A stretch of 63,523 nt of DNA, the filler included, from Nanobdellati archaeon (GTDB lineage Archaea > Nanobdellota > Nanobdellia > Woesearchaeales > JAADFO01): the NCBI GenBank assembly GCA_013152815.1. It is 5 parts of 5 records of this genome, joined end to end, with 100 filler letters (N's around TTAATTAATTAA, not from the genome) between each part and the next. Parts side by side here need not be neighbours in the genome. Positions count along the whole stretch, not along the records: positions 11,513 to 33,662 come from JAADFO010000004.1; 4 more parts are not named here. One strand, given 5' to 3'. How positions within the stretch are numbered: the first letter of the stretch is position 1; every line of letters starts with the position of its first letter. The notes under the pieces were generated by a model. That model saw only the letters and a list, made by a program, of their open reading frames with translations. It was not told the DNA's origin and ran no database searches. Positions 1 to 33,762 of this stretch are shown here, in pieces. The position numbers and the translations under genes are program-made.

Positions 1-40
1 AGCGAAGTGCAACGAGCGAACCGTTAAATTCCTGTTATAT
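1..40 (-). repeat. Partial attC-like recombination site (runs off window start)
   Basis: Minus strand reads ATATAAC-aggaatt..., the same AAC-agg start as the sites at 32660-32684 and 33551-33577. Positions 30-78 closely resemble 33567-33614. Confidence 0.6.
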
Positions 41-70
41 TCGTCGGAGCGAAGCGGAGACCGAGGGATA

Positions 71-155
71 GTGCAACGGTTTTTTGCGAAGTCCTGAGCA
101 TAGCGAAGGATTTGGGAGAGGCCTGCAAGGCCGAACCGCAAAACTGCTGTTAGTT
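71..155 (-). repeat. attC-like hairpin site
   Basis: Minus strand AACTAAC-agcagTTTTGCG...CGCAAAAaacc-GTTGCAC: AAC/GTT cores with an internal inverted repeat and inner hairpins. Confidence 0.65.
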
Positions 156-29812: not shown

Positions 29813-30013
29813 CAGGTTTCCACCTCCGAGCGTTTGATGATCAATTTCTTCATAAGACTATCTTATATTGGAGATAGAATTATAATTTATAAAGGTTTTC
29901 CCGAATTGGAACGTTTGCATAGGAAACAGAAAGGAAAAAAGAGGAGAGCGCTTTGTTAGAGCGCATTCTCGTTCCATACCCTGTCTTGCCAAGAGGTGAG
30001 ACCCTTCTGGCAC

Positions 30014-30199
30014 TTATTTATAGCACTTTCTGACGACAGGGCACGATACGATCGCCACATTCAACAATATCCAGAGGATTGCCGAACTGATCCACAGATT
30101 ACCATCGACCTTCAAGAGATACTGCACATAGTATAGAAATCCGAAGAAAGACAGTTCAGCGACAGCACCATAGACCCATTCTTTTGTTTTATCTGCCAT
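30014..30199 (-). CDS. Small membrane protein
   Basis: Two hydrophobic segments; GAGGTG RBS and TTTATAA upstream. Confidence 0.65.
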   Translation of the reverse strand: MADKTKEWVYGAVAELSFFGFLYYVQYLLKVDGNLWISSAILWILLNVAIVSCPVVRKCYK

Positions 30200-30391
30200 G
30201 ATGAACACCTCCTCATCATGATGGGGATCAAGTTCATTATAAATGTTGCCCTAGGGCGGGCTCTGTAGAAAGTAGGGCCGGCATCCTTCGCGGGGCCTCA
30301 TCAGAAATCAAGCATGAAGTGCCATCATGGAAAAATCACCAGAGAGGCACCGAGTTACTTTTATATAGTAGTTAATAATCCCGGATGCATC

Positions 30392-31140
30392 ATGGTTCAG
30401 GAGAGAATTGATCCACATTTAGACGAAACGATTATGCGTTTATCTAGGTTTGCGCACATTAAACGTTATCAAAAAGCAGCTGAGAAGTAGCTGAGATAAT
30501 TGGAACAGGAAATCGGGTCTTGGATGCTGGTTGTGGTTATGGGTATGGTTCAGAAATTTTAGCTGAAAGGGATACAAGTGTTATCGGAGTGGACATATCA
30601 CCTGAGGCGATCGAATATGCCAATAAACATTATAATCGGAGAAACATAACTTTTCATCAAGGAGATATAACTTATTTTGAATTCTCTGAATTCGGCCAAT
30701 TTGATGCCATTACTTTCTTTGAAGTGTTGGAACATGTAAGTAAACCATCAGCAACATTACAAAATCTTAGAAAAGCCCTAAAAGATTCGGGGAAGCTGAT
30801 CATTTCAGTACCGAACGCTAAGAATGCTTCTAAAAATAATGAACATCATATAAACTCATATGCTCCCGAAGATCTCGAAGAGCTTCTGATTTCAAATGGT
30901 TTTGAAGTGAAACAAAAATTTGGACAATATCCGTTACTGGGTGCTTTAGCTGAGATAGCAAGAACATTTACCGGCTATAATTCTTGTACTGATAAAGAGT
31001 CTGGTAGAGTTCCAAGGATCGTGGATTCAATTCCCGGATTGCCAGAAATTTTTTCAAATCTTTATGAGTCCGATTTTGCCGTATCAACAGGAAGAACGAC
31101 CTATTTTGTGGCCGGACCAGAAGAAAAGCAAGTCCCTTGA
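30392..31140 (+). pseudogene. Class I SAM-dependent methyltransferase, frameshifted by an 11-nt insertion
   Basis: MVQERID...HIKRY ends at TAG 30488-30490. Removing AGTAGCTGAGA restores AAEIIGTGNRVLDAGCGYG. Confidence 0.75.
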
Positions 31141-31204
31141 GTCAAGAAAAGTCGTATATCGAGAACAAAGTCCCTTAAGATACAAGCATAGAAAGTCTGC
31201 AAGA

Positions 31205-31615
31205 TTACAACGGTTTAGTTCCTAAATCTTCTGCAAATCTTAGCAAATATCCATCCGGGTCCTGAACAAGAAATTCCTTATTTCCAAGAAGTTTATTGTC
31301 CCGCCTATACCACATTTCTTTAGATTCAACAAAAATCGGATAATTATTATTTCTTAGATTATCTAAAATTGGTTTGATCTTATCAACTTCTATTTGAAGA
31401 TTGATTCCTCTTCCAAAAGGTTGTTCTAATCTGCCCGCACTCCAATGATTATTTACTTCTTCGATCATTAATTGGCTTCCTTGAAAAGAGAGCATCGCAA
31501 ATTCGGATTCATTCCTCTTATATTCAATTTTGAATCCGAGAATCTCTGTATAAAATTTAAGGCTCTTTTCAAAATTTGATACACTTAATTCAGGAATTAA
31601 TTTGTTGAATCTCAT
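31205..31615 (-). CDS. VOC/glyoxalase-bleomycin resistance family protein (cassette)
   Basis: LIPELSV, SLKFY..LGF, PFGRGINLQIEV, VQDPDGYLLRF. Confidence 0.92.
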   Translation of the reverse strand: MRFNKLIPELSVSNFEKSLKFYTEILGFKIEYKRNESEFAMLSFQGSQLMIEEVNNHWSAGRLEQPFGRGINLQIEVDKIKPILDNLRNNNYPIFVESKEMWYRRDNKLLGNKEFLVQDPDGYLLRFAEDLGTKPL

Positions 31616-31689
31616 AATAATATTGAATAGTTGCCAAGCATATATAAATTTTGCCGACTTCTTCACAAGAATAGACTTTTCTTGATTTC

Positions 31690-31714
31690 ATATGACATCA
31701 GGAATCCTTGATAG
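31690..31714 (-). repeat. Degenerate cassette core site
   Basis: Plus strand ATATGACATCAGGAATCCTTGATAG resembles ACATAACATCAGATTCCTGTTATAC (32660-32684). Confidence 0.5.
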
Positions 31715-32031
31715 GTAAGGAGAGTGCAACCCGACCGACCGGAAAGATCTCTGATTTTGTAGGGACAGTCGTAAACGCTCATCATGCGTATCAATAGAAA
31801 AGGACACATTAATTTTTGTTTAAATCCTTCTTGAAAGAGCTATTAACACCAACTTTGACACATTAAGTTCTCCTCCACGAACGATGGTGAGTGAGAGCTG
31901 AGAAATTAATTTGGGAAAATCCTGCAAGGATTTTCTCTTTAACCGCTGTCTGGGTGAGCGAAGCGAAAGTCTGCAAGACGACCCCAAGAATTTTCGTAGA
32001 AAATTCGCAGAGTTTCTGAGGGTGCCGCACA

Positions 32032-32592
32032 TCACTCCTTTAGTTTAAACATGATCGTTGTAGAAATTACGAAGATGAGTGATACAAGATAAAATATTAA
32101 TTCAAAGCCAAATTTCCCTGCTAGAAAACCTCCTGCAAAAATGGCGATTGCTTCTGCAAATCCCACATAGGCATCATATCTTCCGATATCAGCTCCTCTT
32201 CTTTGTTTTTCAGTTATATCTGCCAAATATGCGGATTCAGAAGTTTCAAAAACAGAGATAATCAATCCGCTAAATATCTGAAGAAGATATAATTGCCAGA
32301 TTGAACCGATAATTGTATATAAAAAGACTATTATTGCAGAAGCATATCCTCCGATAATCAGAAGAGGTTTTCGTCCTATCGAATCTGAATATTTTCCTGC
32401 AACAAGAGAGATCAATGCGCCAGAAAAAACAACCAATCCTACGGCGATTCCAAAATTTTCTATACTACCACCCATATCATTGATAAAAATTAAATAGAAG
32501 GGTCCAAACAATCCAAATGCAAGAGCCATTAATGAACTGGAAAAAGTGAAGATCCTGAGATTTCTCTTGTTGATTTTATTGATAAGAGCCAT
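32032..32592 (-). CDS. Half-size (about 6-TM) MFS transporter (cassette)
   Basis: Motif A GKYSDSIGRK; AYLADIT...RG; only 186 aa. Confidence 0.85.
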   Translation of the reverse strand: MALINKINKRNLRIFTFSSSLMALAFGLFGPFYLIFINDMGGSIENFGIAVGLVVFSGALISLVAGKYSDSIGRKPLLIIGGYASAIIVFLYTIIGSIWQLYLLQIFSGLIISVFETSESAYLADITEKQRRGADIGRYDAYVGFAEAIAIFAGGFLAGKFGFELIFYLVSLIFVISTTIMFKLKE

Positions 32593-32659
32593 ATTAACAT
32601 AAAGAAGGTCTGATTGCTTAAATATCTAACTGCCTCTTAGGCGCCCTCGGAAAGCATAG

Positions 32660-32684
32660 ACATAACATCAGATTCCTGTTATAC
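32660..32684 (-). repeat. Minimal cassette junction site (25 bp)
   Basis: Minus strand GTATAAC-aggaatctgat-GTTATGT. Confidence 0.7.
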
Positions 32685-32758
32685 GATGGTGAGCATAACT
32701 TAGTGAAGCGAAAGCGCAACGTCCCCTTGAGTCTGGTCTTGGGCGTCAAATAGAATTA

Positions 32759-33487
32759 TTATTTCAAGGTTAGTTCAAAAAGGTATTCATGAGCCATCCA
32801 TTTTTTGCCGACTCTAAATATTTTTATTTTGCCAATTTCATTTAAATCTTTATACCAATCAATATTATCTTCCACAAATTCCTTGGTGGGTCCTGTATCA
32901 AAAGCAACAAGTCGAGCATTATAATTATCGATTATCTTTCGTATAGTTTGGGCATAATTGGTAACAGTATAAACAATTATGTAAATTCTTGACTTGTTGT
33001 GCATATATTGTTTTGCTAAATCAAGAAATTTTAAAACTTGCTTGTTTCCATCTGGACCACCATCAAAACTCTTGGTTAATTGTTCACCTATTGCTTCTTG
33101 ATAACTTTTGTGAACAATTTCTTGTGGAAGATTAACAACAATAACATCAAACTTCTTTTTGAGATTTGCAAAATATTCTCCTTGTTGGAAATCAATGCTG
33201 ACATTATTTCTCACTGCGTTTTTCTTTGCTAAATTTAAAGCGTCTTTATCATTGTCTGTAGCAGAAACTCTCCCACCTAATTTGGCAGCGAGAATACCTA
33301 AAAATCCTGGACCTGTCCCAATATCAATAATAGATTCTTCGGCATTGATTCTCATGTTTTCGGCAAGAAATGATCCATGAGGCGAAGGAGGAAATATGTG
33401 TTGATTAATCTCTAACTCGAACTTAATATTTTGAATATCATATTTCCGAAGTTCTGGCTTTTGAACAAAATGTAATATTCTAGTCAT
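32759..33487 (-). CDS. HemK/PrmC-like SAM methyltransferase (cassette)
   Basis: IDIGTGPG, NLPQ (NPPY-like), DGGPDG. Confidence 0.88.
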   Translation of the reverse strand: MTRILHFVQKPELRKYDIQNIKFELEINQHIFPPSPHGSFLAENMRINAEESIIDIGTGPGFLGILAAKLGGRVSATDNDKDALNLAKKNAVRNNVSIDFQQGEYFANLKKKFDVIVVNLPQEIVHKSYQEAIGEQLTKSFDGGPDGNKQVLKFLDLAKQYMHNKSRIYIIVYTVTNYAQTIRKIIDNYNARLVAFDTGPTKEFVEDNIDWYKDLNEIGKIKIFRVGKKWMAHEYLFELTLK

Positions 33488-33550
33488 AATAACATTGAAA
33501 TAATCTAAATTTAATAAAGTTTGCTTTCATATAGCCCAAGACCAAATGTC

Positions 33551-33577
33551 GTATAACATCGGAAATTCCTGTTAGTT
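33551..33577 (-). repeat. Minimal cassette junction site (27 bp)
   Basis: Minus strand AACTAAC-aggaatttccgat-GTTATAC. Confidence 0.7.
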
Positions 33578-33662
33578 ACGTCGGAGCGTAGAGGAGACCG
33601 AGGATTGGTGCAGCGTTCCGTAGCGAAGCGGAGGAAAGATTCAAGTAAAAAAACGGCGTATC

Positions 33663-33762
33663 NNNNNNNNNNNNNNNNNNNNNNNNNNNNNNNNNNNNNN
33701 NNNNNNTTAATTAATTAANNNNNNNNNNNNNNNNNNNNNNNNNNNNNNNNNNNNNNNNNNNN
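33663..33762. other. Artificial contig-joining spacer
   Basis: N-run TTAATTAATTAA N-run. Confidence 0.95.

Follow-up and report, generated by a model that had tools for sequence, protein, structure and literature searches.

Strand-specific inverted repeats at cassette ends in a woesearchaeal genome: a candidate single-strand cassette system related to integrons

Integrons (IntI/attI/attC), including archaeal integrons and clusters of attC sites lacking integron integrases (CALINs), place a tyrosine recombinase gene beside a polar cassette array (PMC9668308), an arrangement also found here. The insertion carried by IntI was used as defining for archaeal integrons (PMC9668308), and extrahelical bases select the strand in attC (PMC8946536, PMC4792948). 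A dif site consists of two 11-nt arms around a 6-nt centre (PMC8371274, PMC5357621). In integrative mobile elements exploiting Xer (IMEX) of the CTXphi type, as in the model proposed below, distant parts of one strand pair into a dif-like duplex with an enzyme that lacks the I2 insertion (PMC5357621, PMC4792948); the co-evolution of I2 and attC has been called a chicken-and-egg paradox, for which CTXphi was named as the sole similar reaction (PMC4792948). The subject of this work is a stretch of 63,523 nucleotides from a Nanobdellati archaeon of the Woesearchaeales (assembly GCA_013152815.1), referred to as the window, which consists of five contigs joined by N filler and in which all coordinates are those of the whole stretch. 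A sequence-only reading of the window had claimed that each cassette gene is bracketed by its own private inverted repeat. The best reading of the arrays to which these repeats belong, from sequence comparison and folding models, appears to be a single-strand cassette system that is related to integrons without being an integron.

Three of the repeats (31142-33544) lie in the AT-rich right end of contig C4 (11513-33662), and the fourth (216-439) is found near the left edge of C1, the contig that also carries the gene of a 279-aa tyrosine recombinase (776-1615) that has no other close match in this genome. All four pairs were recovered, with 12/12 (31142-31153/31674-31685), 12/14 (32013-32026/32640-32653), 11/11 (32734-32744/33534-33544), and 9/9 (216-224/431-439) positions matched, and both mismatches of the second pair are indeed G.T on the + strand. 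The 9-mer of the C1 pair is weak alone, with 27 copies in the genome, but is embedded in a longer conserved imperfect stem. The position of the arms had been called constant, and it is close to that: arm B ends 0-10 nt from a 9-nt core ending in TAAC (TGAC in cassette 1). The other arm had been placed near the stop codon of the gene, which applies within this window only and not to relatives, where genes face either way. Each repeat is private within its array but not to its gene, as unrelated genes can be flanked by one and the same arm pair.

Across relatives in the order, an inverted repeat at the cassette ends is the rule for the whole family. This was assessed on 57 test cassettes defined by cores and linkers only, with the repeat not used, that came from 60 regions around listed sites, 20 regions beside recombinase genes, and loci returned by searches, all within the order. 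A stem anchored beside the core (score ≥10) was present in 39 of the 57 own pairings, against 26 of the 488 pairings sampled across cassettes and 2 of the 42 interior windows. Among the 18 cases without it are decayed copies, ends that were mis-paired, and a subfamily that has an additional imperfect but conserved stem (as at 205-449). An earlier cassette set, in which some ends were mis-paired, gave the same result (41/59 versus 44/822). A gene-centred, strand-symmetric test based on simple open reading frame (ORF) calls returned scores of ≥14 for 17/36 single-gene cassettes, 9/1134 ordinary genes of this genome, and 7/264 non-cassette genes of AT-rich relatives; similar repeats are rarer around ordinary genes, and the equal frequency that the sequence-only reading had named as fatal to its claim was not observed. 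In a classical Vibrio array the stem was found in 0/38 cassettes in either orientation, and own ends paired over a median of 9 nt. In these Vibrio cassettes (L385-L390, L036), own-end pairing reaches up to 13 nt, exceeding the 7-nt core.

A short site pattern was detected in 75 of 401 genomes of the order, a tally that includes two unpublished genomes, with 20 matches in 19 genomes for the reversed control, and a stricter pattern was detected in 2 of 248 genomes from other orders of the class. A loose arm pattern showed no excess over its reversed control in five bacterial genomes. A pattern scan of metagenomes returned mostly single unrelated matches, and only L133, L139, L164, and L194 carried arrays; these four entered the sets of the 86-stem type and the triloop, linker, and shell counts given below, the 57-cassette set contains no metagenome loci, and the earlier cassette set took in every metagenome locus that passed its filter.

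On the recombinase-coding strand, a cassette reads G|TTA-N5, a hairpin domain (12-72 nt), AGT, arm A (10-17 nt), the cargo, arm B, ATT-N5-TAA|C, and a linker, and comparison of the sequences indicates that the two N5s of a cassette are complementary to each other. The stem starts with AGT/ATT in 38/39 cases and with CGT/ATG in the remaining one, and position 2 is G.T on the recombinase-coding strand in 39/39. Because this triplet forms a G.T wobble on that strand and an A.C mismatch on the opposite one, AGT/ATT pairs on one strand only. The folding of simulated circles on each strand had been proposed as a check; with DNA parameters and modelled circle junctions, AGT/ATT was paired (p>0.5) in 28/29 cases on this strand, in 0/29 on the other, and in 0/29 when arm B was scrambled. 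Stem sequences vary widely yet remain complementary and near perfect, with 20 non-Watson-Crick positions of 620, in a set chosen for good stems, for which complementarity counts are partly by construction. A second, nested inverted repeat is located further inside (score ≥9 in 62/79 versus 243/910 cross-pairings). The hairpin domains (n=62) contain 101 GNA triloops on this strand, compared with 13 on the other strand and 15.6 in shuffles, and just 6 GNRA tetraloops; GNA triloops form unusually stable DNA mini-hairpins, whereas the RNA versions are much weaker (PMC13037366). The window cassette with a major facilitator superfamily (MFS) gene is 86% identical to an intact copy in genome G304, and its three stem changes comprise one compensatory change and two that result in G.T; it has lost its own core and ATT, which fits a position at the old distal end of the array.

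The predicted fold is a multi-way junction, in which ATT-N5-TAA would pair with TTA-N5 and AGT to form an 11-bp arm whose partner strand is interrupted by mini-hairpins. Beyond this arm, the model predicts a 6-bp overlap carrying a 2-nt bulge, followed in long linkers and at the recombinase-proximal site by a second TTA-N5-AGT arm, which together would reproduce the 11-6-11 layout of dif. The ends had been interpreted as pairing in single-stranded form so that the gene loops out. That they are complementary in a strand-specific manner, and that this is absent from ordinary genes and Vibrio cassettes, held up, and the interpretation can be refined: the repeat would be one of several stems in a larger fold, and this fold would complete a recombinase-type arm. 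The repeat is also so placed that it lies outside the standard attC model, as had been suggested; its identification with the left box of attC was considered and rejected, as it is on the wrong side of the core and the second arm sits in the long linkers.

Linkers are of two types. The long type is a hairpin that contains a 2-nt bulge together with a second TTA/TTT-N5-AGT arm, and the short type, which is the commonest (48/86), measures 10-17 nt and has no second arm. The own linker was long in 9 of 11 first-position cassettes and in 5 of 31 cassettes that precede a short linker, the other 26 being short (pooled Fisher p 0.0005, for samples that are not independent). Of 50 short-linker types, 25, with the nine commonest among them, correspond exactly to the start of a long linker joined to its end, so that deletion of the hairpin likely converts long into short linkers, and such deletion of the second arm, accumulating at older positions, may freeze cassettes. 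In many genomes, a recombinase-proximal site directly upstream of the gene has the form TAA-N6-TTA-N5-AGT folding on ATT-N5-TAA, has no GTT half of its own, and reads as a hairpin with the same wobble; it is degenerate in this genome. One cassette occurs in G304 ahead of a long linker and in G264, 94% identical, ahead of the proximal site; the two copies diverge just after TAACAT. This point of divergence and the dif-like layout of the proximal site place the putative crossover at TAA|C.

The 279-aa recombinase (SAM_4 and Phage_integrase domains, + strand, catalytic motifs intact, no integron-integrase insertion) scored 207.6 of 220 bits for the archaeal XerA profile and 200.2 of 265 for the integron integrase profile TIGR02249, below both cut-offs. 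Archaeal XerA is its closest profile and its closest solved structure, and its best named relative, from a Ca. Woesearchaeota assembly, belongs to the same clade. In an alignment against the IntI structure 2a3v it has a gap at the IntI-specific insertion, and 52-56 residues lie between the motifs in 33/33 clade members versus 100-104 in four IntI rows, which indicates that the I2 insertion is absent. A quick, unrooted tree of 130 rows placed the recombinase in an archaeal clade of 35 rows (SH-like approximate likelihood ratio test [SH-aLRT] 96) that has no dif-adjacent member; a dif-like palindrome upstream of the gene was found for 0 of these 35 rows and for 9 rows of the sister clade (18 rows, SH-aLRT 93), which contains all nine dif-adjacent rows plus some cassette-adjacent ones. 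The four IntI rows form a separate group, and the recombinase clade may have had a separate origin. A recombinase search gave matches in 70 of 80 genomes, a figure that mixes XerA-type and array-type enzymes and is no test of co-occurrence. Many recombinase genes of the family lie no more than a few hundred bases from the end of a contig, which would be expected if assemblies break at arrays, and arrays are probably under-counted. Palindromic TAA-N6-TTA sites up to about 400 nt upstream of a XerA-like paralogue were seen at L311, L326/L335, L332, L334, L336, L340, L344, and L346, and these look like chromosomal dif.

These data can be combined into a mechanism. The repeats are probably, although with considerable reserve, the halves of a stem that joins a cassette's own ends on one strand, so that a split Xer-like recombinase arm is completed only on folding. 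The adjacent recombinase would bind the 11-bp arm of the folded strand, cut at TAA|C, and exchange one strand; cassettes would be excised or inserted as circles, new ones entering beside the recombinase gene. The private stem would let only a cassette's own ends form the full arm, and the G.T wobble would select the strand, replacing the extrahelical bases of attC. Loss of the second arm, giving short linkers, would build up in older positions and might immobilise cassettes, and the stems would serve as reusable shells that receive whole transcription units in their loops. The layout, the strand bias, the controls, the reuse of shells, and the mobility of one cassette between contexts are the parts of this account that can be read from the sequences themselves.

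Several observations weigh against this proposal. The 8-bp core arm folded without the private stem in the circle, in 29/29 cases with arm B scrambled, which limits the need for the stem to the outer 3 bp and to pairing within the linear array, in which 0.07-5.8 kb separate the two arms of a cassette. Wobbles at other stem positions show no clear polarity (9 G.T versus 4 A.C), and window cassette 3 folds slightly better on the other strand (-20.7 versus -19.9 kcal/mol), with its AGT unpaired. Some cassettes, namely that of contig C33 of this genome and one G304 copy, have a perfect stem but non-matching N5s, own cores were located for only 62 of 86 stems, and short-linker cassettes without a second arm show no more decay, in a set chosen for good stems. 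The recombinase gene lies on another contig than the C4 array, and cassette-adjacent recombinases are not confined to one clade, with L343, L329, and L260 grouping with dif-adjacent enzymes. Finally, the cassettes are related, and the counts overstate their independence. Perfect private stems with non-matching N5 cores, as near 3970 in L254 and in the C33 cassette, suggest that heads are exchanged separately from bodies.

The foremost alternative is that the repeats are only a scar of cassette creation, left over when genes were inserted into the loops of pre-existing palindromic shells and unneeded for recombination. Arm sequences share 3.9/12 positions on average within an array, and the same between arrays. 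Among the 86 stems (3655 pairwise comparisons), 18 pairs are near identical, of which 16 enclose non-homologous cargo; the similarity often extends through the nested stem and then ends, and cores and hairpin domains differ. This end of homology at the inner repeat, the frequency of nested inner repeats, and three gene-less shells (loops of 68-114 nt, all beside a proximal site) favour such an origin, as does the finding that homologues of the window cargo mostly occur without cassette ends. An intact end pair was found at 0/17 loci with glyoxalase homologues, two of which retain a proximal-end remnant, and the methyltransferase homologue, at a single locus, had no intact pair of cassette ends; the four MFS homologue loci comprise one intact cassette, one decayed cassette, and two plain loci. 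Two loci from unpublished genomes were excluded from this survey of cargo homologues. The cargo faces the direction of the folded strand in 21 cases and the opposite one in 17 (46 cassettes, 8 without a dominant ORF), compared with 32 versus 6 genes in the Vibrio control, and a TATA-like box is found 20-37 nt upstream of 32/38 cargo genes and of 0/38 positions inside genes, a control that is not composition-matched. It can be inferred that shells are reusable and that whole transcription units were placed into their loops. As a complete explanation, however, a mere scar is unlikely: left-overs are expected to decay, yet the stems of the selected set are near perfect, and stems that differ in sequence keep their complementarity and always abut the one-strand AGT/ATT wobble. 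The sequence-only reading had left open a structural rule or a trace of creation; both have support, and they are not mutually exclusive.

The stem may also serve another single-stranded step, such as complementary-strand priming, protection from nucleases or single-strand-binding protein, or packaging, without being read by the recombinase. GNA mini-hairpins are known at phage and plasmid priming sites (PMC13037366), and a scaffold with nested stems exceeds the footprint of a recombinase. This option is nevertheless improbable, since the first three pairs of the stem are exactly positions 9-11 of the dif-like arm, and since the TTA-N5-AGT arm is unsplit in long linkers, proximal sites, and Bacteroidota cassettes. 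Pairing that acts in RNA, as transcript ends, as antisense RNA, or in an RNA intermediate of cassette formation, for which RNA-based models exist (PMC3053210), would be compatible with the predictions in that folding by itself cannot tell RNA from DNA. It is, however, very improbable, as the wobble strand is fixed while cargo occurs on either strand, the arms lie outside the TATA-like boxes in 32/38 cassettes, the loops are triloops rather than tetraloops, and a scan of 30000-33700 against Rfam gave no match at E≤1. Chance complementarity in AT-rich DNA, even though 142/264 ordinary AT-rich genes reach score 10 in a loose test, can be set aside as practically refuted by the exact register, the fixed AGT/ATT start, and the failure of the cross, interior, ordinary-gene, and Vibrio controls to show the stem.

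With the split-arm stem as the preferred reading, the relation to described systems can be specified. The arrays share with integrons GTT/AAC cores, complementary own ends (by sequence comparison), one strand that is predicted to fold, and probably the placement of the newest cassette beside the enzyme. They differ in that the array enzyme lacks the IntI-specific I2 insertion, in that a hairpin domain interrupts the right arm, which is closed by a long stem enclosing the gene, and in that many linkers are 10-17 nt long, whereas attC measures 57-141 bp (PMC3053210). In contrast to attC, which has two boxes, an unpaired spacer, and extrahelical bases, short linkers have no second box, and long ones have one, together with the 2-nt bulge and a paired spacer. 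Integron genes are mostly promoterless and in one orientation, whereas genes here face either way and have TATA-like boxes of their own. At the proximal site, in the place of the double-stranded attI of integrons, a hairpin is predicted. The system would be integron-like in its working and falls outside integrons in enzyme domain, site architecture, and gene orientation. With Xer/dif (XerCD, archaeal XerA) it shares the 11-6-11 arm layout, in the folded model and at the proximal site, and paralogues in the same genomes adjoin palindromic dif-like sites, but the enzyme is below the XerA cut-off, there are many sites per genome, and full arms exist only in the predicted single-strand fold. CTXphi borrows the host XerCD and uses one fixed site, whereas here the system's own recombinase gene abuts arrays of exchangeable cassettes with the cargo in the loop. 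Arrays beside short SAM_4 recombinases of Bacteroidota (L006/L391) likewise lack the IntI insertion and have ATT-N5-CAA and TTG-N5-AGT arms that are complementary within a cassette; they differ in a contiguous arm, in own-end pairing that ends at 14-15 nt, and in having no displaced long stem (three cassettes of one genome), and their unsplit arm is possibly a simpler state. No description of this Psychroserpens array (L006 6045-9600/L391), located beside an I2-less SAM_4 recombinase, was found in the literature searched. Miniature inverted-repeat transposable elements and insertion sequences differ as well, as the arms here form no family-wide terminal repeat, share few positions, and are internal to the cores.

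In the C4 array, all site elements are on the + strand and all three cargo genes on the - strand. Cassette 1 has lost its own GTT core; a hairpin-domain remnant (~31126-31139) precedes the distal end, with the conserved AGT and arm A (31140-31153), and the proximal end (31674-31696) consists of arm B and ATT (31674-31687), N5 (31688-31692), and the TGAC core. Its cargo is a glyoxalase/VOC-fold gene (31205-31666) with a called GTG start, the true start being likely downstream because homologues mostly align from residue 14-18. A short linker and decayed remnants of cassette ends follow (31696-32010), the own core of cassette 2 being mutated relative to the intact G304 copy. Cassette 2 comprises a distal end with AGT and arm A (32011-32026), a half-size MFS transporter gene (32032-32592), for which a 92% identical protein occurs in cassettes of two other genomes, and a proximal end (32640-32666) with arm B (32640-32653), an ATT broken by a 2-nt insertion, N5, and TAAC. 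Cassette 3 begins with a short linker without a second arm (32666-32678) and a distal end (32678-32744) made up of a GTTA-N5 core (32678-32686), a hairpin domain (32687-32729), AGT (32730-32732), and arm A (32734-32744). Its cargo is an S-adenosylmethionine (SAM)-dependent, MTS/PrmA-like methyltransferase gene (32759-33487), and its proximal end (33534-33557) has arm B (33534-33544), ATG replacing ATT, an N5 complementary to its own distal N5, and TAAC. A short linker and the head of the next cassette (33557-33662) are cut by the end of C4. At the distal edge of the array, a methyltransferase gene (30392-31140) looks broken, since the frame from an upstream ATG stops after 33 codons and the Pfam match begins at residue 1 of the ORF at 30520.

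On C1, site elements are again on the + strand. The cassette there has a distal end (149-224) with a core (149-157), hairpin domain, AGT (205-207), the conserved imperfect stem, and arm A (216-224), a 49-aa ORF on the - strand with a hydrophobic stretch and no Pfam match (225-374), and a proximal end (431-458) with arm B (431-439), the conserved imperfect stem, ATT (447-449), N5, and TAAC. It is followed by a long linker (458-566), an attC-like hairpin that contains a 2-nt bulge together with a second TTT-N5-AGT arm, and by a putative degenerate gene-less shell beside the recombinase gene (566-655), with a core, a hairpin domain, AGT at 603, and a poorly matching far end. By eye, window positions 34-148 appear to be a cassette head fused to the far half of a long linker via a shared short word, as if one whole cassette body had been deleted. 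Two more small arrays of this genome are on contigs C11 and C33, and the C33 cassette has a perfect 16-bp inverted repeat in the same position. Both arrays (C11 near 35030, C33 near 1379) are inserted at a distance from the recombinase, where the chromosomal sequence resembles a core with a short linker. Their cassettes L393 264-762 (C11) and L394 74-559 (C33) contain genes for ParE-like toxins, each with a small partner upstream with which it likely forms a toxin-antitoxin pair; the match in C11 is weak (E 0.003). In the C11 cassette that follows, a Bro-N gene and an exonuclease gene are in facing orientation.

No description of this cassette design was found in the literature searched; the attC tables in the supplements of PMC9668308, outside that search, may include some long-linker sites. 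Such arrays would likely be missed by attC-based searches. In its widest form, offered tentatively and with more doubt than confidence, the interpretation is that an integron-like system without the IntI domain arose separately from XerA/dif in small archaea, its cassettes being nested shells of single-stranded DNA that build their own recombinase arm and were made by dropping units of promoter plus gene, in either orientation, into empty shells; it would be a cassette factory and a stand-in for the pre-integron step. The arrays represent a candidate complete cassette system with an I2-less enzyme, and with them the question of integron origin, namely how cassette recombination evolved before the I2 domain and attC co-evolved, becomes testable. 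The question of how cassettes are made becomes testable too: shells that are reused or contain no gene, and cargo that brings its own promoter and lies in either orientation, suggest that genes are captured as DNA. Members of the family are common within one archaeal order, and their sites are short enough for oligonucleotide assays.

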